Made by a program: the position numbers and the translations under genes
Shown here: in pieces, positions 3,525-53,089 of the stretch
How positions within the stretch are numbered: position 1 is the first letter of the stretch
Layout of the letters: each line of letters opens with the position of its first letter
NCBI GenBank assembly: GCA_046563655.1
Contig: CM102289.1
Location: forward strand, 1,178,001 to 1,242,000
Origin: Yuukianura sp. NJ FZ-2021
Lineage: Eukaryota
Length of the DNA: 64,000 nt
Direction: 5' to 3'
The notes under the pieces: model-generated
What the model was told of the DNA's origin: nothing
Databases searched by the model: none
Seen by the model: the letters and a program-made list of their open reading frames with translations, nothing else

Positions 3525-4409
3525 TCAACTTTAGCTGCTTCTGTTATTAAATTTGCTTGACCGCCCTTGTGATCCAATCAACGAAACAATCAATGTTTGG
3601 TTATTTGGACCCAATCAAGATAACTAAACAAAAAGACACAATCACTTAACTAACTAAGTTATAGTCTCATGAGCAGTTTTTTCAGCTTTTCTTGTGAAAA
3701 TATTTGGGGTACTGTACCCAAGGAGATAAGCATAATTAAAAAAAAATCGTGCAAAAGTTGGTTGAGGTAAAGATGATGTGTTACTTGTAACCAATGTTCG
3801 GTATTTGACACAAAATGGACTATTTGGCATTGACTTGCATTGCATTCTTTAGTTATAATAAGTGCAAAACTTTTATAATACCATTTTCCAATCGAAAGAC
3901 GAATCTAAACCACCAGTTAGATGATGGGGTAGACTGCGTGGTTACAATAGAGGAATTTACTTTGTACTCCGCCCAACGATTGAGCTGATATAAACAAAAC
4001 GTTGTCAGAGAAAAGCTAAAATCAAACAATACGCCCCACTAAAAAGTTTCACAAAAAGACAATGAAAAAACGGCTCGTGAGACTACCCAAGTAAGCGACA
4101 GTGTCTATTTGTTTGTTTTCTTGGATTAAATGACTTCCATTGCCGAAAAATAAACAAAACCAAATTGCCTAAGTGTAGGATATTTGCACTTAAAAGACCA
4201 CATCTGGCGTAACTAAAGTGTTAAAAACGTCATTTTCCTGTTAACCTTTGAAATGAACGGAAGTGTGGATTCTTTCTGAAAGTTTTCACCTCACACAGTT
4301 AAATTGGATAGTTCTTTTGACAGCTTCTATCGGATTTGAAGTTAGGCTTCCTGGTAATATCTCCAGTACACAACTATGGATTTAAATATTACATAAAAGT
4401 CGAGACATT

Positions 4410-5701
4410 ATGATGGATCGAACCAATTTGTGGGTTAAGTTAATGTATACTTGGGCAAGATTTATGCACTACATACCCGTAACATATCATTTTGGACATG
4501 GACAGCCAGATACTATTGTTAACACAAAAAACAATGCATTGTACAATGTGTTTGGAGTATTTTCTACTGTTGTTTTTGGAACAGTCATAGTATGTTGGTA
4601 CTACGAAACCGTTTTTGGTGCTACGACAAAATTTGAAAAAATAATTGCTGTGGGGCTAAATAGTGTCTGTAATGTAATGCATATGACACAATGGATTCTA
4701 CTTATGCGTACCACACGACAACGTTGCATCAAGGTCACAAACATCACTCTCCATACCAAGTTCTATTTGTCCAGAAAATTACCGCGCCCTTTTGCAATGA
4801 TGTGTTTGATGTTCTGCTCAGCAGCAATAATGTATCCGTTTCTCTTCCTACCATTTGTATACGCTATGTCATGGGCACTACCTGGACTGTTCACAACAAT
4901 TCACAATGTACTGGCACTTACCGCTTCACAACTCAGCATTCCGGAGTCTACCGCGTACAACTGGCTATTCAACATATTACAATTTATTGCTTTTGCTAGT
5001 ATTGCAGTTGGTACGGGTCATGCAATAGTCAATATTGCTATTCTGTTTCATTGGACTTATATGTATTTGTTCACAACGAATCAACTACTAAAGGAACCCT
5101 GCTTTGCCTGGTAGGTTAAAGTAAAATTTGTGCTGTAGTTATTGCTTTTAGTTTTTTAAAAACTGAAAAGTTTTTATATGTTTTAAATAAATTTAAATTA
5201 TTTGTTATTTTTGTTTATAGTGAAGTACGCCAGCAGCAACGACCTCAAATATGCCCAGAATCACTGGAGTATTTGAAAGTTAAAGTAATCGGAAAAGCAT
5301 TTGATGAAGCTTTTGGACGTTTAGTTACTGTAACTGCAATTAATATTTTAGCAATTTTGGTCGTGTTCTCATTTTTTGCAATTCGTGCCATTGGTCACTA
5401 TCCGCTTGCGCTATTAGTTGTTGTTATGGTTAGTACCGATTTTGTTGCCATAGTAGATGCAGCCGTTCTCTTCTCGATTTCAACTGATCAGTACATTTTG
5501 TCAAAAAGTTTAATTGAACTAGCTCGTCGCCAAGCAACAAAATCCGGCTCAAAATACGAATCAAAATTTTGGAAGAGCATGACTCCATTGCGCATTGTTG
5601 TCGGAAGTTTTTCTTCTTTTGAAACAAGGGAATTCATTTTGTTCATTTGGGCAGAAGTAGTTATTTATTCATCAATTATAAATCTCCTTCTAGCATTTTA
5701 G
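4410..5701 (+). CDS. Divergent gustatory-receptor-like multi-pass membrane protein (exons 4410-5110, 5221-5701; 393 aa)
   Basis: Two hydrophobic ORFs are joined in frame by a phase-2 GT-AG intron. The C-terminus KFWKSMTPLRIVVG...SSIINLLLAF is shared with the paralog at 20557-22818. Confidence 0.75.
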
Positions 5702-5900: not shown

Positions 5901-8900
5901 CTATACGTTTCCTTCTGCGTCGCTTTCACTGTCTTCCAAGTCTGCAGGAGCAACTGCAGTAGCCTTTTTCCCCTCGTTTAAAATTCGAACACAAAATTTG
6001 AATTCTGTTCCCGCTGAAAGCGTTGTCGGGACAACCAAGTATTTTCCAGCCTTCAGTTTGTAGTGAACACTCATACTATTTAACGTATTGCCCGGTGCCC
6101 GCTTGAGTCCTTCGGGATAAATTTCATGAACTTCGTTCTTTTGAAAAAACGTTTTGTCAAAAGTAGTTTCACTGGAAACCTGAAATTCAAAATTTAAAAC
6201 AAGAAATTTTCTCAAAATTCCCAGTTTTTTTAAAAATTGTAAATTTACTGGAAACAGGCGAACGGTGTATCCGTCGTCTAAATCTTCCCACATTTTGTTT
6301 TGTATAACAACCCCAACGATGAGCAATCCGTTTTCTGGTTTAGTCATTTCTACTACATAATGCGGGTTCCGCCAAGGTTTATCTGTGGCGGGAAATTCAA
6401 AATTCAAATTTTAGAATTCAAAACAGTTTTTGAGTTTATAACTACAGTTTTTTGAGTTTTCAAGGCTAATCTGGCTGGAATTTTAAAAAATCTCAAGTTA
6501 CCCCAACCGACTGCCGTATTGTCACAGACGTTCCACTCGTTTTGGAAACTGACCAAACTATACTTGGCGCCTGTGCAGTTGACTTCATTTTGATCCCAGT
6601 ACCAACAACAGGAAATGTCCATAAAATACTTTTTGAAATCTTCGTAACTCATCCAAAACTCGCCGTCATCTTTGCTGACCAAGCCGATTTCCTGTTTTTG
6701 AACTTCACTAACTTGTTGCCACAACGCAGAATCGTCGGCCCAGTCACCTTTCCACTCCGATTTGCCCCACGGATTGCGCAGTCGCATAATTTCGTGCTTT
6801 TCGCCATTCGTAGTTGTAACTACTCTGGCTCCAGTTACAGAGTACGCATGGTTGCCAATTATGTTCAGTTCCTTCAAAATTTTGAAAAGTTCAAAAAAAA
6901 AATTTTTTTTTTTAAACAGTTCAGTTTTTTAAGTTACGTTGGGTATAAATCCTGCTGTGGCTCCCAGGACACAGTCATGCTCAATCCACTTTTCCATTGT
7001 TGGAAAAAAGCCGTCTGGAAGTTTTCCGTCTTTGATTGGCGTCAGGTTACCGAATCCACCAATTAGAGACTCCAACGCGTACATGATAATGTTTCCAGCA
7101 ATATGTGCGTAGTCTCCAACCAACCTAACAAAAATGTTCAAAATTTCGAAAGACTAAGAAAAAAGTCCAAAAGTTCAAAATAACTTTCAAAATTGTTTTT
7201 ACTTTGCAAATGCTTTTTCGAGCAGAATTGCCCAAAATTCGGCTTTTCCATTCTCGGGAGCAAAGTTACTTCCGATGATAACCGTTTTTTCGCGGGTGAC
7301 AATGCAAGGCAAGTAGTCGTCCACTACCACGTCAACCCACGTACCCTGGTACCAAAATCTACCAAAATTGAAAATTTTTTAGAACTAAACTTTTCGAAAA
7401 CCAATTTTTCAGATTTACGAAAGTACCGAAAGTGGTACACTCCTTCATCATTGGTTTTGTTGTCATCAGGAACCACAAAAGTTATCAACTCTGGAACCAT
7501 CGACACAGCTGACAAGGAACACAAAAACCAACAATCTCCCACAGATCCTTGCAGAATGTCAAACCGAGCCTCAGTTTGCCCAATGTCACCGTCATTAAAT
7601 GTTGGCACGTTTTTGTCTTCGTACAACCTTTTACATACATCCTAAATGCAACATAATTAGTTAAATAATAATATGTGATACAAATAGGCAGACGGACGTG
7701 CATAATTAATGTTATAAAGTAGGCCGACAGACAGACAGACAGACACATGAATAATTTTCTAAAACAGTCAGACAGGTAGATAGACTCGCGGACAAACAGA
7801 CAGACAGGAATAATGTTACACAGCAGACAGACAGACAGACAGGAATAAACCGGTTGTAAACCGCCCATACTGATAATAGCGAAGCAATAGCCCCCCCGAA
7901 GGGGGTTTGTTCCCCCCACTTTCCCGCCTCCCCCCCCCGGGGAGTAGGGGTGTGTTTTCCCGCTTCTTTGCTCCGTATCCCAGGAGGCGTGGGGTGTGTT
8001 CCCCCCACTTTCCCGCCCCCCAGGGGATGTTGACAGGTGAGACGTGACAGCTGAGGCGTGACAGCTGACAGGTGAGACGTGGCAGCTGAGGCGTGGCAGG
8101 TGACAGGTGAGACGTGACAGCTGAGGCGTGACAGGTGACAGGTGAGACGTGACAGCTGAGACGTGACAGGTGACAGGTGACACCCGGCAATTGAGAGGTG
8201 ACAGGTGACACCCGGCAGGTGACAGGTGACAGGTGAGACATGACAGCTGAGGCGTGACAGGTGACAGGTGAGACGTGACAGCTGAGACGTTACAGGTGAC
8301 ACCCGGCAACTGAGAGGTGACAGGTGACACCCGGCAGGTGACAGGTGACACCCGGTGGACACAGTGCATGAGTGTGTGAAGTGTATCTGTCAACTGCGTA
8401 ATAGATTTTTTGCTAAGCAGAGAACCATGCCCCATGCCAATTGCCTTTCCTGTCTCACAAGCAGAGTTTTTTACCCACACTTGCATTACAAATGACCTTT
8501 AAAATCCATTTTGACCCGGACGCAGGTGACCTAGGGTCACACATTACACACAAAAGTTGTTCCCCTCGATGAGATGAACAACTTTTGTAGATGTCATTTT
8601 CCGGGTTACCGGGGATGAAACCGGTTGACCTTGACCTTTGACCCGGAAGGAGTTGACACCCGGGGGTCATATTCAATAGTGACCTAGTCCGGGTCATGGG
8701 GTGTTGATAGGTGAAAACCGGAATCAAATCGGGCCAGTAGTTTCTGAGATAATTAATCTGGACAGACAGACGGACAGACAGACGGACAGACAGACAGACA
8801 GACAAACCACTTTTATCATAATAGCTTCGCTATTATAATAATGTTACACAGCAGACAGACAGACAAACAGACACGAATACTGCTACACAGAAGACTGACA

Positions 8901-11375: not shown

Positions 11376-14300
11376 TGTAATATATGCATTCATGCATCTT
11401 TTTCTGTTCCTTTCTTACTGTCGTGTGAAATGCAATCTAAGCATCTTCACACCCTTGACACTTCTACAATGTCAATTGAGTTCTCTTAATTCGGAAATAA
11501 ATTAGTCACTCTGGTTTTGTAATTAGACGAGTAAAGTCTATCATACAAATGTTCTAGCAGAACATTACATTGGCGACGAGAGTGCTTTCCAGTTAAAGTA
11601 TTCCCCATTACATGTTGCCTGTGCCAAAACAACCCAAAGAGGAAAAGTCAGCAGATTACGCTGTACGCGAACGTATCATAACCATGACCTCCGCAACTGT
11701 TGGTGTCCTTCCTCCGTTTTGTGCAACCACGGACGATTTTGAAGACTGGATAATGATTTTCGAATCCTTTTTGTGTGCCAACGGCATTGACCCGACGAAG
11801 GATAGCCACAAGGCCCGTGCCAAGGGTGTTCTACTTTCGTCAGTTGGACTCCCCACTTTCTCTCTACTGTCAAGTTTAGTGTCTCCTAAAAAACCCACCG
11901 AAGTGGATCTCTCGATTCTCGTCGAGACCCTTCGTGTCCATTTCAAACCTCCTCCTAAGGCTTTGTCGGAAAGATTCAAATTTGCTTCGAGGAAACAACG
12001 GAATGGGGAAACGGCTTCCATGTTCCTAGCCGAATTACGTAAGTTAGCAGTAACATGTAAATTTGACACTGCTCTAGAGGATCGTCTCCGCGATCAATTC
12101 ATTTTTGGCCTCATCAACGAAGCTGCTCAGAAACGAATCTTGATTCGTGACGACAACCTCACCCTGTCGGATGCTTTGCAAGTAGCCACAGCCCAAGAAG
12201 CAGCTGAAGCCGGCACTTCGACCATACGAGAAACCAAGTCAGAGGTCAACTACACCTCTACTCGCGGTCGTGGGTCAGGTCCGCGTCCACCTTCCGGTCG
12301 TGGCCGAGGTGGCGGACAACACAATTCAAAACGCGGTGGGAAGAGTGCCCCGCCCAAGAAGAACCAATCCAACAACAGTTGCCCTAACTGCGGGTCAACT
12401 GAACACTTCAAGGCCAAGGACTGCCCCCACAAAGACGTTGTGTGTCATGGGTGTGGTAAAAAGGGCCATTTTAAAAAGTACTGTCGCAGTTTACCGAAAG
12501 CGACTAACGAGACACGAAATGTAGTTGAAGTGGACTACAACGTCTCAAATGTATTCACAATTTCCCAAGGAAATTCTGTTGATGCTGAATACATTGCAAA
12601 AGTCAAAATCAATGACTTTCTCCATGAAATGGAATTTGACAGTGGCTGTCGCCGGAGTCTCCTCAGTGAAAGTTTTTGGAGTGAAAGTTTAGGTTCTCCA
12701 CCGTTGCGAAAGTCAACCCAAGTGTTTCGGTCGTTCACAGATCACACTTTCAAACCCCGAGGGGATTTGGACGTTAAACTGACTTTCAATGGACAAACCA
12801 AGAATTATACATTCTGTGTAGTGAAAGGACGATCACTCTTCGGCAGAGATCTGATCCGGTTGTTTAAATTGAACCTTTCACTTTCACCCAAGTGTAATAG
12901 TGTGTCCCCAGTGCCCACACTCAAGTCTCTCCTTGCAGAGTTCTCAGACATTTTCTTACCCCCAAGTGGCACAATTCAAAATTTTAAAGCCAAAGTCACG
13001 CTGAAGGAAGATGCTACCCCGCGATTCCTCAAGGCCAGACCAATCCCTTTTGCCCTACGAGCAAAAGTGGACATGGAACTCGACAGAATGGAGAAATCTG
13101 GTGTTATTTCTCGCATTGACCATTCAGAGTGGGCGTCTCCACTCGTGGTAGTTCCAAAGGCCAATGGGAGAGTGCGTATCACAGGTGATTTTAAACATAC
13201 AGTGAACTCCCAACTCCACGTCAACCAGTACCCACTGCAAAGGGTTGATGACCTTTTGACCTTGATTTCGGGTGGTTCGACTTTCTCGCGTCTCGACGGT
13301 CCAGACGCCTTTCACCAGCTTCAGTTGGATGAGTCCAGCAGAAAGTTTTTGGTGATTAACACACATAAAGGTTTGTATCAGTATAATGTGTTGCCACAAG
13401 GAATTGCATCATCGCCCGCCATATTTCAAGAGTTTATGGACGAACTTTTGAAGGGAATACCGATGACAGGCTCTTTTATGGACGATTCGTTGACCAGTGG
13501 TGCCACCGACAGTGACCATATCAAGAATCTTGAACAAATTTTTCTGCGCATGCGCACGGCAAACTACAAACTTGCCATGTCAAAGTGTCAGTTTCTTCAA
13601 AAATCACTTGATTTTATGGGCTTTGTGCTTAACCAGAACGGTGTTTCCACTTCCCCAGAGAAAGTGAAAGCCCTCAATTCTATTCAACGTCCCACTTCAG
13701 TGACGGAAGTGCGTTCGTTTATGGGACTTGTGAATTTCTACGGACGTTTTGTTCCTGGACTTTCACACATTAGTGCTCCCTTGTACCGATTGACTCAGAA
13801 GGATGTCGTGTTCAAATGGGATCAAGCCTGTGACCGTGCTTTCTCCCAAGTGAAAGTGGCCCTGTCCAAGTCACCAGTGCTTGCCCATCACACCCCCTCA
13901 CTCCCCATAGGCATAAGTTGTGACGCTTCACCTATCGGACTAGGAGTTGTACTCTTTCACCGTTTCCCAGACAACACGGAACGCCCGATCGCATTCGCGT
14001 CTAAGCTGCTTTCTCCGACGGAACGTCGCTACGCACAAATAGAACGTGAAGCCCTGGCGATTGTGTTTGGTGTCAAAAAGTTTCATCAGTTTTTGTGTGG
14101 TCGTTCGTTTCAAATTATAACCGACCACCAGCCCCTACTTTCGATCCTTGGACCCGGATCGCCCGTTCCGAGTTTCACTGCAACTCGAATTCAGAAGTGG
14201 ACTCTGTTTTTAAGTCAGTTCGCTTTCACCATGGACTATCGCCGCACCACCGATCACGGCAACGCCGATGCATTTTCCCGGCACCCGTCGACCGATCCGA

Positions 14301-15527
14301 CCGAGCTCGATCCGACCACCGAAGCTGAGGTGAATCTCATCAGTGCCCAAACCATGGAACATTTACCGGTGGATAGCAAAACAGTCCGAACTGCGACGGG
14401 GAAGGATCCCATCCTTGCAGCCGTCCTTCGCAAAATTATTGATGGTTGGTCCCCGACCCCACCATCCAAAACCGATCCACTATTTCCGTTCTACGGTCGT
14501 CGTGCTGAGTTGACCCTAGTTCAAGACGTGATTCTCTGGGGTCGTCGGATCGTCATACCCAGCTCGTTACGCACCCGGATTATGGCGAACCTCCACGAGA
14601 CTCATGCTGGAATAGTGCGCATGAAATCCATTGCCCGCCAACATGTCTGGTGGCCTGGGATTGATTCGGAGATCGAAGACGCTTGTCGGTCATGCAACTT
14701 CTGCATCCAGCGCCGTCCGAATCCGCCGTCCGCGCCGCTACACCCATGGGAATTCCCTGAAAGGCCGTGGCAGCGTCTGCACATTGACCTCGCCGGTCCG
14801 TTCAAAAACAAGATGTGGCTCGTCATAGTTGATGCCCACTCCAAATGGCCGGAAATTTTTTCCCTCGGAAACAACTCTACTTCGGGATCGGTCATTTCCC
14901 GAATTCTGGAATGCATCGGTCGATTCGGACTTCCGGATCAAATAGTCTCCGACAACGGTCCGCAGTTTACTTCCTACGAATTTAAGTCCTTTTGTCGTCA
15001 AAATGGTATTAGGCACTCCACGAGTACCGTATATCACCCCCGCTCCAACGGCGAGGCGGAACGATTTATTCAAACATTTAAATCCTCCTTATCTGGTTTC
15101 AATGGGGATTTAACCACACCATTGCAAAGGTTCTTGTTCCGGTACCGTATCACACCGCACCCTACAACGGGCGCAGCTCCTTGCGAACTCCTTCAAAACC
15201 GACCGCTCCGAAACACACTGCACCTGCTGCATCCGGATTCCGCTCTGACTGCGTCCCGCGCTCAAGCTCACCAAAAGGAGTGTTTTGACCCACACGCCAG
15301 AGATCGGCAATTCGGTATTGATCAAAAGGTTTGGGTCCGAACCTTTTCCAAAAACGAACCGACTGTCTTTTCTTACTGTCGTGTGAAATGCAATCTAAGC
15401 ATCTTCACACCCTTGACACTTCTACAATGTCAATTGAGTTCTCTTAATTTGGAAATAAATTAGTCACCCTGTTTTTGTAATTAGACGAGTAAAGTCTATC
15501 ATACAAATGTTCTAGCAGAACATTACA
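11376..15527 (+). mobile_element. Ty3/Gypsy LTR retrotransposon, Mag-like
   Basis: 5' LTR 11376-11569 (TGTAA...TTACA), PBS TGGCGACGAG at 11571-11580, 5'-truncated 3' LTR about 15363-15527, and 5-bp TSD ACTGG (11371-11375, 15528-15532). Confidence 0.97.
11612..15463 (+). CDS. Gag-Pol polyprotein (Gag with two CCHC knuckles, PR, RT, RNase H, IN)
   Basis: LRDQFIFG, CPNCGSTEH/CHGCGKKGH, FDSG protease, WASPLVVVPK, LPQGIASSP, FMDD, CDAS...YAQIEREALAI, HHCC plus LHIDLAGP...IVSDNGPQF...SNGEAER. Domain order is PR-RT-RH-IN. Confidence 0.96.
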   Translation: MLPVPKQPKEEKSADYAVRERIITMTSATVGVLPPFCATTDDFEDWIMIFESFLCANGIDPTKDSHKARAKGVLLSSVGLPTFSLLSSLVSPKKPTEVDLSILVETLRVHFKPPPKALSERFKFASRKQRNGETASMFLAELRKLAVTCKFDTALEDRLRDQFIFGLINEAAQKRILIRDDNLTLSDALQVATAQEAAEAGTSTIRETKSEVNYTSTRGRGSGPRPPSGRGRGGGQHNSKRGGKSAPPKKNQSNNSCPNCGSTEHFKAKDCPHKDVVCHGCGKKGHFKKYCRSLPKATNETRNVVEVDYNVSNVFTISQGNSVDAEYIAKVKINDFLHEMEFDSGCRRSLLSESFWSESLGSPPLRKSTQVFRSFTDHTFKPRGDLDVKLTFNGQTKNYTFCVVKGRSLFGRDLIRLFKLNLSLSPKCNSVSPVPTLKSLLAEFSDIFLPPSGTIQNFKAKVTLKEDATPRFLKARPIPFALRAKVDMELDRMEKSGVISRIDHSEWASPLVVVPKANGRVRITGDFKHTVNSQLHVNQYPLQRVDDLLTLISGGSTFSRLDGPDAFHQLQLDESSRKFLVINTHKGLYQYNVLPQGIASSPAIFQEFMDELLKGIPMTGSFMDDSLTSGATDSDHIKNLEQIFLRMRTANYKLAMSKCQFLQKSLDFMGFVLNQNGVSTSPEKVKALNSIQRPTSVTEVRSFMGLVNFYGRFVPGLSHISAPLYRLTQKDVVFKWDQACDRAFSQVKVALSKSPVLAHHTPSLPIGISCDASPIGLGVVLFHRFPDNTERPIAFASKLLSPTERRYAQIEREALAIVFGVKKFHQFLCGRSFQIITDHQPLLSILGPGSPVPSFTATRIQKWTLFLSQFAFTMDYRRTTDHGNADAFSRHPSTDPTELDPTTEAEVNLISAQTMEHLPVDSKTVRTATGKDPILAAVLRKIIDGWSPTPPSKTDPLFPFYGRRAELTLVQDVILWGRRIVIPSSLRTRIMANLHETHAGIVRMKSIARQHVWWPGIDSEIEDACRSCNFCIQRRPNPPSAPLHPWEFPERPWQRLHIDLAGPFKNKMWLVIVDAHSKWPEIFSLGNNSTSGSVISRILECIGRFGLPDQIVSDNGPQFTSYEFKSFCRQNGIRHSTSTVYHPRSNGEAERFIQTFKSSLSGFNGDLTTPLQRFLFRYRITPHPTTGAAPCELLQNRPLRNTLHLLHPDSALTASRAQAHQKECFDPHARDRQFGIDQKVWVRTFSKNEPTVFSYCRVKCNLSIFTPLTLLQCQLSSLNLEIN

Positions 15528-17626: not shown

Positions 17627-19739
17627 TTATGCAAGCGAAACTGCATGAGCCGGTTTTCCTTCACTGAAAATTCTCACACAAATTTTGAATTCCTGTCCAG
17701 TTGTCATGGCGCTGGGAACAATCAAGTATTTTCCCGCCTTCAACACGTAGTACTCACTCATACTGTTGAAATTTGCAATTGGAGCTTCCTTCTTCCCCTC
17801 GGGGAAAATTTCATTGCCCCAATTCTTCTGGAAGAACTTTTTGTCAAAAACGGTCTCATTTTTCACCTGAAATGACAAAAAAAAAAATTAAATTTTCAAA
17901 ATTTTATATAGAAAATTTTGAAATTTACTGGAAACACTCGAATTGTGAATCCATCGCCCACGTCCTTCCACAACTTTTGTTGTATAAGCGTTCCAACGAT
18001 CAGCAGTCCCTTTTCCGTTTCCGGAGTCATTTCGACCAAAAATGCCGGATTTTCCCACAAGTTGTCTAAAGTTGGAAATTCAAAAGTTCAAAATTTGGAA
18101 AAAGAGTTTGAAATTTGTTTTCTGGGAAGCTTGGGCGGGAATTTTTGCAAAATCTCAACTTACCCCAACCGCCCGCTGTTTTCTTGGCTACGCTCCACTC
18201 AGTATGGAACTCAGCGTAGCTGTTCTTGGCGCCTGCGTGGTTGACCGTTTTCGAATCAAAGTACCAACATGACGAAATGTCTTCGAAGTACGTCTTAAAA
18301 TCTTCGTAACTGATCCAGAATTCGCCTTCATCTTTGTTGATATGCTCCATTTCTCTCTTTTGCTTTTCGTTCACTTCTTTCCACTTTGGTGAACTGTCGC
18401 CCCAATCGCCTTTCCACTCTTCTTTTCCCCACGGATTGCGCATGCGCAGTAAATTGTATTTGTTGCCATTTTCGGTTGTTACCACCCTGGCTCCAGTTAC
18501 AGAGTAAGCATGGTTGGTAACAATGTTAAATTTCTGTATCCAAAAAAAGTTTACAAAAAAATGTTTTTCAAAATTTCATTTTGAGACACTACGTTAGCTT
18601 CGGTTTTCGTTCCAGCTCCAAGCACGCAGCTACGATCAATCCACTTGACGATTGTTTCAAAAAAGTCGTCCGGAACTTCTCCTTTTTTCAAAGGCATGCT
18701 TTGACCAAATCCACCAATCAGAGCCTCCAGGGCATACATAACGGAGTTTCCAGAAATATGGGAGTAGTCTCCAATCAACCTAAAAAGTTACAAAATTTTC
18801 AATTTTTTGAAATTTTTCAGTCCTTTAGTTCAAATTCTGAAAATGTATCCGTACTTGGCAAATGCCTTCTCGAGCAAAATTGGCCAAAATTCGGCTTTTT
18901 CATTGTCTGGATAAAAATTGCTTGCAATTGCCCAAGTTTTTTTATCCGTTACGACGCAAGGCAAGTAGTCGTCCACAACGACGTCAACCCAGGATCCCTG
19001 GTACCAAAATCTGCCAAAATGCAAAAAAGTAAAATAAAATTTTCAAACTTTTATAAAATTTTGAAATGTACCTAAAATGGTAGACTCCTTCGTCATTGGT
19101 TTGATTGTCATCAGGAACCACAAAGGAAATTAATTCCGGAACCATTGAAACAGCAGAAATTGAGCACAAAAACCAACAGTCGCCAACCGCTCCCTGCTGA
19201 ACGTCGTTTCGAGCAATCGTTTTTCCAATTTCGCCGCAACTGAAACAAGGTACGTTCTTGTCTCCGTACACCTTTTTACAAACGTCCTGTTTTTCAAAAT
19301 TTCAAAAAAGAAATTAAAATTTTGAAGCTTAAGTCCTGATAAACATCTGATTCAAGCTAACCGCAATTCGTAGCCACGCTGCAGTTCCGTTCCATCCTTC
19401 ACTTTTCCACCTTTGAAAGCTTTTAGCGCTTTCGGGATTGGCGATGTCAAAAAGTTCGGCGTAGTCGCCAACTGAAGTGTCGTCGTGGAGGAATTCGGGA
19501 TCTTTGAAATGCGAACCGCGGGATTTTTTCAAAATGTCGTGAAAAACCTGTGCACGGTGCTCGTGGCTCTTGAGGTCAGTGATTTTTTCCAACTCGGGAT
19601 CTCCATACTACAAAATCATGATAATGAAGTACAATAAAATAATATATTTCATAAAAGTGACCTTTGTTAAATATTTTAAAAGAGGTATAATTGGAGTTAC
19701 ATAGTAGACGGGTTTCCCTTTCACAGTATATGGCGCCAT
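17627..19739 (-). CDS. Second non-classical calpain paralog (CysPc plus short domain III), 8 exons
   Basis: [14 protein letters not shown] and RMRNPWG. Same exon structure as 5901-9472, starting [13 protein letters not shown]. Confidence 0.92.
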
Positions 19740-20556: not shown

Positions 20557-22818
20557 TTACATTGCAAGGATAAGAGTGATGACATTTTGGAGTACAATGT
20601 CTCCATAAATTGTGAGAAGATAAGCTTTGGTGTCCAACACAAATTGTTCTCCAACTTTGAGTTCAATTGGTTTCCTTGAGATCCAAAATTTTTTGGAGAA
20701 TGGCGTAGAGTTGCGCAACATACATTTGCCAGCACTGATACACTTGATAGAATGATTCCATGTGAAATGGCCAAAACAATTTGGCCAAAAGTGAAATGAT
20801 CAGAGGTGAAAAGGCCAGAAGTGAAATGGCCAAAAAGTGAAAATATCAGAATTGAAATGGCCAAAAAGTGAAAAGGCCAAAATCTAAAAACGCCAAAAAG
20901 AAAATGGCCAAAAAGTGAAATGACCAAAAAGTGAAAACGCCAAAAAGTGAAAAGGCCAAAATATGAAAAGGCCAAAAAGTAAAAAGACCAGAATTAGGAA
21001 AAAAAATACCTTCAGTGGGTAACTCGGTTTTCTACATTTTTTAAATACAAATATGACCCCCTGCCACGAAAATACTAATTTTTTTGCGATCTGCTTGAAA
21101 TATTTCAAATTTTTAGAAGATGTAAAAAATGGGAAAATATTCCATGTTAACTTTTTCTAAACAAACAAATCCCATTTTTTGAAAGTTAACCAAATCTAAC
21201 CTAAATACTATAACAAAATTGCTTAAGCACTTAAAAACGTAACCTAACCTAACAAAATATAAGCTAAGACATATTTTGAGAAAAAATTAACGTGTGACCT
21301 TATAGCGAAATTGCATTTTTCACAATTTTCCGAAAATTCAAAATTTTTGAGAACGGGCCAAAAAAAAAATTTTTCATAGTCAGGGGGTCTTATTCGCAAA
21401 TAAAAATAAAAATAAAAAAAATGCGAGTAACCCACTGAAATTAATTTTTTCCTAATTCTGGTCTTTTCACTTTTTGGCCTTTTCATATTTTGGCCTTTTC
21501 ACTTTTTGGCGTTTTCACTTTTTGGTCATTTCACTTTTTGGCCATTTTCTTTTTGGCGTTTTTAGATTTTGGCCTTTTCACTTTTTGGCCATTTCAATTC
21601 TGATATTTTCACTTTTTGGCCATTTCACTTCTGGCCTTTTCACCTCTGATCATTTCACTTTTGGCCAAATTGTTTTGACCATTTCACCTGCTACGGATAG
21701 AATTGACGTGACAGAGAACAGCTAAACTGATTGCTTCCGTAAGTACAAACACAATTACTATGGTAGCCAACATAAAAAATAAAAGGATAACAAGATACCG
21801 CAGATTGAGCAATTTGACAAAAGTATAACAAAATGTTATGAGTACTATAATTGCAGTGTACAAAACAAATAACACGACGCCTGCAAATACGTCGTTTCCA
21901 AACTTGTTCATAACTTGGTGACATGCGAATATAGATCTCTGCTCTGCCAGCCTTGACTCCTCTTCCATAGTTTTACTATCCAGACAACAAATTGTGATTT
22001 GTAATTGATTGAAAAGTTAAAATTTAATTTGAATTACCTCAATTTTTGAAGCCAAAGACGTGTTCCATTGGTGTATATTAGGACACAATAAGCAAAGAGG
22101 AGCACAGAATAAACTCCGTTGATATATGCCAGAGAGTAGAGTACCGTTACGATTGAACTTACTATTGTAACAATAATTCTACTAGGATCTACTCCAAAAC
22201 AATACAGCAAAGTTGTTTGAAATATGAGATAATTTGCTTGACTTATTTTGTTGTCCATTAATATAGAGAACGTTATTACTGCCGGTATTAAAAGTATTCG
22301 GCTACAAATAAATATCCCGAATATTGATTTTAACACAACTTCATACCCATCCTTTTCCTCCGAATTTAGTGAAACCTTGTAAGATTTGACTAAAAACAGC
22401 AAAATTAACGTAGATTTAAAAAAAATTGTTATATTGCCTGTAAATATGGATGAAGAAACTCACGAAGTCCATTATTGAATTTTATGAATGTTGACAATAT
22501 TGATAAAATTGAATCCCTGAATGTAAAATGCCAAAGTTGCATACCACACCACAGTATGGTGACAGCAATTAGTCCAATCATAAACACCAACTCCGCGTTT
22601 TCACAGCGCAGAAGTACAGCAGCAGCAGTAAAGAGTAGAGCAGCGACGCAATTCCATACAACACTCACTGCAGTAAGTGCATTGGAAATATTTGTGTTGT
22701 TACTTTTAATTGTAACTAACTCTTTGCCTTGCTGTACAATTTTAAAATTGTAAGCATTCCATTTCCAACCTTCCTGAAATAATTTTAGTGCATATTTCCA
22801 GGTTGTTTCTGATAACAT
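20557..22818 (-). pseudogene. Gustatory-receptor-like gene whose last exon is interrupted by a foldback element
   Basis: Exons 22818-22464, 22389-22038, 21975-21696 plus 20745-20557 give 391 aa ending HVNSI|KCISAG...KKFWISRKPIELKVGEQF...IVLQNVITLILAM*. Confidence 0.82.
20754..21695. mobile_element. Foldback-type non-autonomous DNA transposon, 942 bp, 8-bp TSD
   Basis: About 250 bp of near-identical inverted arms built from ~15-bp subrepeats (GGCCAAAAAGTGAAA). TSD GATAGAAT at 20746-20753 and 21696-21703. Confidence 0.92.
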
Positions 22819-51268: not shown

Positions 51269-52351
51269 CTAAAAATTACAAAACCCAAAACAAAAAAATT
51301 TGTAAACTTCATTTTGTATGTATCTTCATCAATTTGCAAACTTTTTTTCCCTGAAATTTTGAAGACAAAACTTTAGTTGCCAAAGAGGAGCTAAATCTCA
51401 ATGACCCCAAAATTTCTGGACTTGCAGCTCATTTGCCTCATTTTTTTCAACTTTCTCCCATAACGAACATGTGGTGCATAATGATTCTGGTTATAATAAT
51501 AATTAATACTATTCGGAGAAATTTGAATGCATTAATAATTTGTAGAAAAATGTATTTGATCCTTTGGAAAGTGTTGAATGAGGTAAATGCTTGGTTCGAA
51601 ATTTAAAAGTTAAAAACCTTTTATCTAAATGCTTTGAAGGTATGCATGTCACCCTCACAAGCCTTCGTGTTCATACCTACATAAGGAATTTACAACATTT
51701 TATTAAAAGTCGTATAAATAATAAGTAAATAAAAGTAAATAATAAACGTCTGGCCAAGGTTGCATTCGATTTTTCACTTTCTCTTTCTACTGGTTCATTT
51801 CATTTCAAATTTGCTGCTTTATGTTTTTGTCCATTTTCATCACCTCAATTTCCAGCTGTAAGCTTAGTGTATTTTGCTAGCTCGTTTCTGCTCTAATCGA
51901 ACGTCCAAACTTGGATGTCTTATGAATATCGTCACTGTCAGATTCTACAATTTAAATGCATTCCACAATACCTTCACCAGAAGTTTTTGTATTAATTTTC
52001 CTGGAATTCGGTCGATTCGTCAACCCAAGTCTCGTGGAATTCGTAAATTTGGATTTGTTTTTGGGCGGGAGTTGGGCCAGTTGCTACAATCATGTGATCA
52101 TGTACTATGCATTTACTAATGTCTACACGTCCCATCCCTTAACATTGGCCAAAATTGGACAAATGCCCGCATGGAACCGGAGAGATGGCAGCCCCTGTCG
52201 CATTATTACAAGAAACGGAAACATTTCCGAAACTAAAACCACATCATTTTGTGCAAAAAACAATCCGCACTACAATACCAAAACGGTGGACTGCATTGGT
52301 GTTATCGCTCTGTTTCCACAATTGCCCGGAGAGGACTTGGATATTTTGAAG

Positions 52352-52505
52352 GGAAGGAGGCCATTGTTTCGAACAGATTGTTCCGAATGAGAATTGTTTC
52401 GACAAAAATAATTGTTTTCAAATATTTCAAGAATTGTTTCAAAACAATTATTTTTCGCAACAATTCAATTCGAAACATTTCTATTCGAAACAATGGCATG
52501 GAACC
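52352..52505. mobile_element. 154-bp foldback MITE with 8-bp TSD
   Basis: TSD TTTTGAAG (52344-52351, 52506-52513). Inverted GCCATTGTTTCGAA / TTCGAAACAATGGC, with internal ATTGTTTCGAA subrepeats. Confidence 0.9.
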
Positions 52506-53089
52506 TTTTGAAGCACTTATCGACATTCTGGTTGAACAAGGGGTTTTACAAGAGAATTGAAAAGGGACGCCCAGATATTGTGCAAATAGGGAATCCACTG
52601 CAACCGACATTCTGGCTACAACGCACGCGTCTGCTCGTAGTCACCGACTTATGTACTTTTCAACGAACCACTGGAATCACAGAACGCAGGTTGATAGATT
52701 TACGTCTTCACTCTGACTTTGGTGACTTTAAGAACAGAATGCTTGTTAGAGTAATCTACAAGGATTGCGGTACAGGAGCAATGAGTGGCAAATTTTATAC
52801 TACAATTGGACTTCCTGTATTGAACATATTGGCTTTAGAGGTTTTAAATGTCACAACATTGCCGCTCAAACTTGACTTTGAAGCTCTTCAAAAGAAAATG
52901 TTGAAAGTAATGGCAATTAGAATACAAACAACTAATATGAACTCCATGGAGAATATGACTCTGCCAACATTCATTCAATTCCTCCGGGCGCCGTACAACC
53001 AAAGTTCATTTCTGGCAGCAGGTAAATCGCGCTATTTGATTATCTAGAAATTAACTTTTTGTAGTTTGTACAAATATATTTTAATTGTA

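Follow-up and report, generated by a model that had tools for sequence, protein, structure and literature searches.

What kind of mobile element has arms that mirror each other almost throughout and yet ends in two different tips? This question is raised by a 154-bp foldback element at 52352-52505 of the window analysed here, which comprises 64,000 nucleotides of Yuukianura sp. NJ FZ-2021 (assembly GCA_046563655.1, contig CM102289.1, positions 1,178,001 to 1,242,000). The element interrupts a coding exon, and a second foldback element of 942 bp (20754-21695), whose arms are unrelated in sequence, carries a similar pair of tips elsewhere in the same window. The 154-bp element is an insertion whose unequal tips are conserved in a multi-copy family, and we consider it probable (about 0.6) that both elements are non-autonomous foldback elements of the Mutator superfamily, of the Phantom/Muta type, with their transposase or transposases encoded elsewhere.

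Insertion and borders of the 154-bp element

The element lies between exact 8-bp target site duplications (TSDs), TTTTGAAG, at 52344-52351 and 52506-52513. Its left end reads GGAAGGAG followed by GCCATTGTTTCGAA, and its right end, on the reverse complement, reads GGTTCCAT followed by the same GCCATTGTTTCGAA; mirror symmetry runs inward from base 9, and the outer 8 nt differ between the ends. An earlier reading made from the letters alone (the sequence-only reading) had proposed these coordinates, the TSD and the start of symmetry, and the sequence and an inverted-repeat search agree with it on each. The outer arms (52360-52377 and 52480-52497) pair at 94%. Tandem Repeats Finder (TRF) reports a 14-15-bp unit in 2.6-2.7 copies per arm, with the core ATTGTTTCGAA, which at up to one mismatch has 13 matches in the window (8 of them within the element) compared with 5.05 expected; 1 of 100 shuffles reaches 13. 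Folded as single-stranded DNA, the 154-bp stretch reaches -42.3 kcal/mol as its minimum free energy, compared with -17.1 +/- 2.8 kcal/mol for 200 shuffles (z = -8.9), none of which folds as well. A nested insertion was considered as the origin of the outer 8 nt and was rejected, as the two 8-nt stretches are not direct repeats of each other.

Three lines of evidence together identify the element as an insertion. The first is a scan of the window for 8-bp direct repeats around inverted arms (offsets 0-12), which returned 7 rows compared with 1, 0, 0, 0 and 0 in five shuffled windows; two of these rows are the 154-bp and 942-bp elements, a third lies inside the 942-bp element, and the other 4 are low-complexity pairs. 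The second is the reading frame, because removal of 52352-52513 leaves a single open frame of 310 codons with the junction ...GEDLDILK/HLSTFW.... The third comes from contigs of four public runs (X1-X4) aligned to 52050-52850 at 80% likeness, where X1-X3 represent one sample of organism A and X4 represents organism B, and where contig depth does not equal copy number. Among the matches listed, a 1316-nt contig of X3, which comes from a diverged relative of the host gene, follows the window as far as 52351 and again from 52727, having 210 letters of its own in between against 375 in the window, and by this arithmetic on alignment coordinates it is about 165 nt short at the insertion point. Two more contigs (X1 and X2) also break off at 52351. 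Together with one TSD the element adds 162 bases in frame and places a host-frame stop at 52388-52390, in line with the earlier description of an in-frame addition that carries stop codons. By its structure (small size, stops in the host frame, inverted arms, TSD and many copies) it is a miniature inverted-repeat transposable element (MITE), or non-autonomous terminal inverted repeat (TIR) transposon.

The same restored frames bear on two other kinds of element. Introner-like elements supply GT...AG together with their TSD and are spliced out as new introns, with the exact frame restored, so that their host genes stay functional, which would fit flanking frames that are still open, and the 942-bp element (20746-21703, gene strand -) has a donor-like CAG/GTGAAA in its tip, with a CAG lying 11 nt inside the downstream exon; use of these two sites would give a net change of -3 nt in frame, with four codons becoming three. 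An in-frame alternative of this sort has one chance in three of arising by luck, however, and neither GT nor GC opens any of the 9 registers of exact excision, either in the 154-bp element or, on the gene strand, in the 942-bp element, so that an introner origin seems highly improbable and the least credible of the explanations weighed here. Helentron or DINE-1-like elements have asymmetric ends with subterminal inverted repeats and insert without a TSD, between T and T; they are ruled out by the exact 8-bp TSDs whose removal restores the frames.

Host gene and age of the insertion

The 154-bp element lies in the first long open reading frame (ORF) of its host gene. This gene has three ORFs, and at least three genes in the neighbourhood have ORFs that are 32-50% identical to them. 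The host ORFs have no Pfam match of their own. Six ORFs of the local family match Lig_chan below the curated cut-off (E 0.00013-0.0096), and it is reasonable to infer from paralogy to these sub-threshold ORFs that the host encodes an ionotropic receptor (IR)-like chemoreceptor. The paralogous genes form a nearly intron-free cluster at 26362-58378 in which Lig_chan is seen only below threshold, and, as judged from sequence, this cluster is probably a divergent IR-like family that standard profiles hardly detect.

The insertion is not private to this assembly. Contigs identical to the window cross both of its junctions in X1 and X3. The left junction is also crossed by a 128-nt contig of organism B (X4) with 6 differences, and the right junction by a 378-nt contig with 35 differences (X1, X3), so the insertion is older than some of the divergence between haplotypes, paralogues or strains. 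The host locus (52050-52850) is present in the runs in at least three forms, which may be haplotypes, paralogues or strains: that of the window, one about 9% diverged that has the element, and one about 12-15% diverged that does not. The form about 9% diverged is the 378-nt contig, in which the right TSD has G>A at 52510.

Conservation of the unequal tips

The 154-bp element belongs to a multi-copy family, and dozens of contigs in the four runs share its right end. Among the matches listed, likeness to the window is lost exactly behind 52505 in 11, 10, 8 and 5 contigs of X1-X4, respectively (34 in all), and the continuations beyond that point are unlike each other (agreement 0.42-0.48). At the opposite end likeness is lost before 52360 in 4 contigs of X3 and 3 of X4, again among the matches listed, and the consensus of their unaligned letters ends in GGGAGCAA or GGGAGCAC, i.e. 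GGGAGCA(A/C). In other copies of the family, therefore, one end carries GGTTCCAT and the opposite end reads about GGGAGCA(A/C). Since the first is delimited in 34 contigs and the second appears in 7, the unequal tips are a feature of the family; two different tips are conserved within it, and this family-level evidence is new for this genome. The left tip of the window copy, GGAAGGAG, matches the consensus of the other copies at 5/8 positions and is somewhat off-consensus. With the 8-bp TSDs, the restored frames and the contig ends of the 154-bp family in agreement, the proposal of the sequence-only reading that the unequal tips belong to the mobile unit is upheld.

The contigs also reveal variation inside the family. 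Copies with central deletions (29-42 nt gone) are of three kinds, with joints from 52402 to 52432, 52399 to 52442 and 52406 to 52436; their left alignments of 43, 40 and 47 nt, respectively, begin at 52360 and their right alignments reach 52505. Another set of contigs, in records of 1014-3153 nt from all four runs, has only 52436-52505 in common with the element and then continues inward with a conserved sequence of its own (agreement 0.71-0.79), which indicates that longer relatives with the same 70-bp end exist. A search of metagenome contigs with the 22-nt right end of the element gave 0 matches.

A second element with related tips

The 942-bp element is flanked by the TSD GATAGAAT, and in each of its 246-nt arms, which are 99% complementary, a 16-bp unit recurs 11.8 (about 12) times. 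The element ends in the tips GATTCCATG and CGTAGCAGG. Symmetry had been placed at base 9 in this element too, but its actual start is base 6 (20759), and base 8 is mismatched. The two elements were correctly described as having sequence-unrelated arms, as blastn finds nothing in common between them beyond a 16-nt chance match.

The tips are a different matter. In the matching pairing those of the 154-bp and 942-bp elements are identical at 8/9 and 6/9 positions, and of 2,000,000 9-mer pairs drawn at random from the window 6 reach this level in either pairing, a chance of about 3e-6. A scan for both tips (at most one mismatch each) together with an 8-bp TSD finds 2 places, exactly the two elements, and 18 of 20 shuffles give none. 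Further copies were sought in the window by blastn with both elements, which gave short low-complexity matches only, and by structure scans, which returned only the two elements. The first tip pattern taken alone has 3 matches in the window compared with 0.95 expected, and 7 of 100 shuffles reach 3. The consensus ends of the sequence-only reading, GRTTCCATG and SGWAGSAGG, survive as a shared pair; the second was drawn too tightly and, in view of GGGAGCA(A/C) in the other copies, is better written SGNAGSANG. A third exact GGTTCCATG is present at 52170-52178 (-), where it lies within the host exon and upstream of the 154-bp element by 175 bp, with no inverted arm or TSD beside it; it is probably due to chance.

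The resemblance might still be a coincidence or an accident of single copies, the tips being decayed ends of ordinary TIRs and the elements unrelated. The left tip of the window copy does depart from the consensus of other copies at 3/8 positions, the second tip pattern is common in the window, and only two elements were compared. Against this stand the low chance of the observed pairing and the occurrence of the right tip in 34 contigs and of a distinct left tip in 7, from two organisms, among the matches listed. Decay does not explain the tips either, because the arms of the 942-bp element are 99% identical and its tips are nevertheless unequal. We therefore regard an accidental likeness as quite improbable.

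By family consensus all four ends have CA-N-G at bases 6-9 (CATG, CAGG, CATG and CA(A/C)G), preceded by 5 outer bases; the left and right ends differ in these bases, and across the two families they agree at 4/5 and 3/5 positions. The hAT elements have short TIRs that start with CA or TA at the very end of the element, and the CA-N-G of these four ends is reminiscent of such termini, which raises the alternative that both elements are non-autonomous hAT elements with degenerate outer TIR bases. Here, however, CA-N-G lies 5 nt inside the TSD border; frame restoration makes the 5 outer nt part of the inserted DNA, and their likeness between the families also speaks against degeneration. The ends read GG, GG, GA and CG, and complementarity starts at base 9 in the 154-bp element or base 6 in the 942-bp element. 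The exact 8-bp TSD of both elements is the predominant length in hAT (PMC5499845), whereas arms of a dozen tandem 16-bp repeats are not among the hAT features in the excerpts of the literature available. On balance a hAT origin is unlikely.

The 942-bp element interrupts a different kind of gene. Its host is a multi-pass membrane ORF with a distant paralogue in the window at 5120-5698 (22% identity, E 5e-6). Pfam at E values up to 10 returned noise only for this ORF, a protein atlas gave no usable match, and 0 homologues were found at E <= 0.001 among longer proteins. Two adjacent ORFs occupy 4386-5698 (+), and the second of them is this paralogue of the broken membrane protein; judging by the sequence, the window may contain a second family of membrane proteins that has gone unrecognised. 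The statement that both copies sit in chemoreceptor exons thus has indirect support, by paralogy, for the host of the 154-bp element and is unconfirmed for the membrane ORF that hosts the 942-bp element, for which no family match was obtained. Two insertions are too few to show a preference for exons. A 20-nt word of the 16-bp repeat occurs at 6 loci in metagenome contigs, with one match each and likeness over at most 47 nt; as relatives of the 942-bp element these loci were dismissed, such single short matches being attributable to chance.

Superfamily assignment and proposed mechanism

We read both elements as Mutator-type because their build matches that of the Muta/Phantom foldback elements: a terminal motif, arms of 12-16-bp repeats, an 8-bp TSD and short derivatives. 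The TSD is exactly 8 bp in 2/2 elements, within the range of 8-10 bp for Mutator foldback elements. Muta-type arms have 9-15-bp tandem repeats behind an 8-10-bp motif, and the arms here have 14-15-bp and 16-bp units behind tips of 8-9 nt. Two unequal conserved motifs outside the inverted repeat, as in Tm1, are found in the 154-bp family among the contigs listed.

If the assignment is correct, the 154-bp element would have entered a coding exon of an IR-like receptor gene by cut-and-paste insertion, which duplicated 8 bp of the target and broke the frame. Each of its ends would have two parts, an 8-nt terminal motif that is unequal between the ends, followed by the shared G and 2-3 inverted 14-15-bp subterminal repeats, and the 942-bp element would represent the same build, with a motif, about 12 copies of the 16-bp repeat per arm, an 8-bp TSD and a related motif pair. 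Both would be moved in trans by a transposase or transposases encoded elsewhere. By analogy with Muta1, the transposase may bind and cut at the terminal motif, and subterminal repeats may recruit further transposase and be required for cleavage.

A more speculative proposal, to which we give distinctly less credence than to the superfamily, is that a single transposase lineage serves both families and reads a conserved unequal pair (about GRTTCCAT and SGNAGSAN, each followed by G) common to several foldback families with unrelated repeat arrays. If true, end recognition would be modular, a left/right 'address' of the lineage being combined with family-specific repeat arrays, and synapsis would involve a distinction between the two ends, which to our knowledge has been shown for no eukaryotic Mutator-type element.

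Several observations weigh against the Mutator assignment and the two-tip interpretation. No transposase for these elements was seen among the 35 of 99 window ORFs of at least 90 aa that were scanned with Pfam; the sole mobile-element protein there is a Ty3/gypsy-type pol, and no ORF with the Mutator-like element (MULE) domain of a DDE transposase, which often comes with a FLYWCH finger, occurs among them, so the superfamily is read solely from the architecture of the ends and the length of the TSD. A TSD of 8 bp would fit hAT, Merlin and P as well. The tips have no clear likeness to the Tm1 and Muta1 motifs given in the published excerpts, with 4-nt overlaps by eye. The family status of the tips comes from the 154-bp element, the 942-bp family being known from one copy. 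The left-tip consensus GGGAGCA(A/C) derives from 7 contigs with an overall agreement of 0.64-0.66 and is a tool consensus without an inspected alignment, and a few contigs among the matches listed end at 52499, 52502 or 52504 instead of 52505. Finally, the second tip pattern, in the version of the sequence-only reading, has on its own 2 matches in the window compared with 1.22 expected, and 38 of 100 shuffles have at least 2.

The TSD length leaves two further superfamilies to be weighed. P elements have an 8-bp TSD, Galileo has one of 7 bp, and that of Drosophila Foldback (FB) is 9 bp. Galileo-like foldbacks of the P superfamily, mobilised by a THAP-type transposase, would account for the arms, as internally repetitive long TIRs exist in Galileo (PMC3169594, PMC3573991). 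The 7-bp TSD of Galileo does not fit, unequal outer motifs are not among its features in the excerpts of these descriptions, and no THAP ORF occurs among the 35 of 99 window ORFs scanned, which makes a P-type origin very unlikely.

In the Merlin superfamily the TSD is 8 or 9 bp long and the TIRs, which measure 24-462 bp, carry a conserved GG at their termini; one family has very divergent TIRs (PMC8101967). The two elements could accordingly be non-autonomous Merlin elements mobilised by an IS1016-like DDE transposase: the TSD length agrees, the 154-bp element has GG at both ends, and the left tip of its other copies also begins with GG. The 942-bp element lacks the terminal GG, however, as it ends in GA and CG. 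In the excerpts of the literature at hand, it is MULE and P foldbacks that have long arms composed of short subterminal repeats in tandem, and such arms are not among the Merlin features given there, and no such transposase was seen among the scanned ORFs. Merlin is thus an improbable source, about on a par with hAT, and the Mutator assignment remains our preferred one.

Other features of the window

The coordinates of both elements and their hosts are collected in Table 1. Elsewhere in the window, a 1288-codon frame at 11597-15460 (+) encodes reverse transcriptase, RNase H and integrase (the Ty3/gypsy-type pol mentioned above) and is apparently intact. ORFs at 6407-6928 (-) and 18069-18575 (-) match Peptidase_C2, the calpain protease family, over profile positions 211-296 (E 2e-31 and 1.6e-30, respectively), and their sequences suggest a local duplication of a calpain gene.

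Table 1. Parts of the two foldback elements and their host exons, in window coordinates.
Feature	Coordinates	Strand	Basis
TSD GATAGAAT, left copy, 942-bp element	20746..20753	.	sequence, repeat and tip scans
Terminal motif GATTCCATG; 8/9 like GGTTCCATG	20754..20762	+	sequence, tip comparison
Left 246-nt arm, about 12 copies of 16-bp repeat GTGAAAAGGCCAAAAA	20759..21004	+	inverted-repeat search, repeat finding
Non-repeated 440-bp interior of 942-bp element; no notable ORF seen, no protein-family search made	21005..21444	.	
Right 246-nt arm, 99% complementary to left arm	21445..21690	-	inverted-repeat search
Terminal motif CGTAGCAGG read inward; 6/9 like GGAAGGAGG	21687..21695	-	sequence, tip comparison
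TSD GATAGAAT, right copy, 942-bp element	21696..21703	.	sequence, repeat scan
Host exon of 942-bp element; without 20754-21703 one 169-codon frame ending in a stop, about 4 hydrophobic segments	20557..22016	-	
Host exon of 154-bp element; 310-codon frame without 52352-52513; paralogous to first ORFs of neighbouring IR-like genes	51956..53047	+	ORFs, frame restoration
TSD TTTTGAAG, left copy, 154-bp element	52344..52351	.	sequence, direct-repeat and inverted-arm scan
Left terminal motif GGAAGGAG, non-complementary to right tip; GGGAGCA(A/C) in other copies	52352..52359	+	sequence, contig ends
Left arm, an initial G plus 2.6 copies of the 14-bp subterminal repeat with core ATTGTTTCGAA	52360..52402	+	arms, TRF
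Hairpin centre; inner arms 52404-52428 and 52431-52455, 88%	52403..52453	.	arms, fold, contig joints
Right arm, 2.7 copies of the 15-bp subterminal repeat plus a final C; of all parts, the one that the largest number of contigs share	52454..52497	-	TRF, contigs
Terminal motif of right end, inward reading GGTTCCAT; other copies cease to match exactly after 52505	52498..52505	-	sequence, contigs
TSD TTTTGAAG, right copy, 154-bp element	52506..52513	.	sequence, direct-repeat scan

Comparison with known systems

The closest published counterpart is Tm1 of root-knot nematodes, a Mutator/Foldback element of the Phantom subclass. According to the excerpts of its description, Tm1 has the 7-bp motifs A1 and A2 (CGGTTAA and CCTACCC), one per end and outside the inverted repeat, followed by a 3-bp shared motif and a variable number of 13-15-bp tandem repeats; its TSD is mostly 9 bp (8-10), A2 is well conserved and A1 more variable, and most members are MITE-like, with a Phantom-type MULE transposase in a known member (PMC3169594). 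Its authors note that short non-inverted ends are known in other Mutator-like elements too (PMC3169594). The 154-bp family resembles Tm1 in its unequal motifs outside the inverted repeat, the shared bases and tandem repeats that follow, and the conservation of one motif while the other is more variable. It differs from Tm1, so far as those excerpts describe it, in that the motifs are 8 nt long (or 5 nt plus CA-N-G) and of other sequence, in that the TSD is 8 bp in both elements of the window, in that no autonomous member was seen here, and in that a related motif pair occurs across two families with unrelated repeats.

The Drosophila FB and Galileo elements share with the elements of the window long arms made of tandem subrepeats, variable arm length and hairpin formation. 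Muta1 and Muta5 of Aedes aegypti, MULEs termed 'type 2 foldback', have a terminal motif of 10 bp and 8 bp, respectively (PMC5225508). As excerpted, the accounts of the Muta families give 8-9-bp TSDs, about 9 copies of a 12-15-bp subterminal repeat behind the motif, and hundreds of short derivatives with variable repeat number (PMC5225508, PMC5499845). The Muta1 transposase binds terminal-motif fragments, with more binding as repeats increase; cleavage requires a repeat, joining requires the motif, and a hairpin forms on the flanking DNA during cleavage (PMC5499845). The 8-bp TSD, the terminal motif with its subterminal repeat array and the short derivatives all recur in the elements of the window. 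In the excerpted account, however, both ends of Muta1 carry one motif, the imperfect palindrome GGGTCTACCC, whereas here the ends carry different motifs.

The sequence-only reading had presented two distinct conserved ends as a novelty, and that view does not stand, as unequal motifs are in print for Tm1 (PMC3169594) and the roles of motif and repeats have been tested by biochemical means for Muta1 (PMC5499845), to the extent that the excerpts of these papers cover them. With the Tm1 and Muta/Phantom designs already published, our interpretation is only partly new, and the 154-bp element adds one more instance of an architecture that was described in 2010-2017. Of mild interest for transposon biology is the related pair of unequal tips in two families with unrelated arms. 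Such elements matter for annotation, where tools that expect inverted repeats at the very end will miss them or misplace their bounds, the true ends here being displaced outward from the symmetry by 8 nt. Should the shared tips be confirmed by a genome-wide survey, they would offer a natural system for how Mutator-type transposases distinguish ends and for how far motif and subterminal repeats are exchangeable, which has so far been addressed only with Muta1 constructs.

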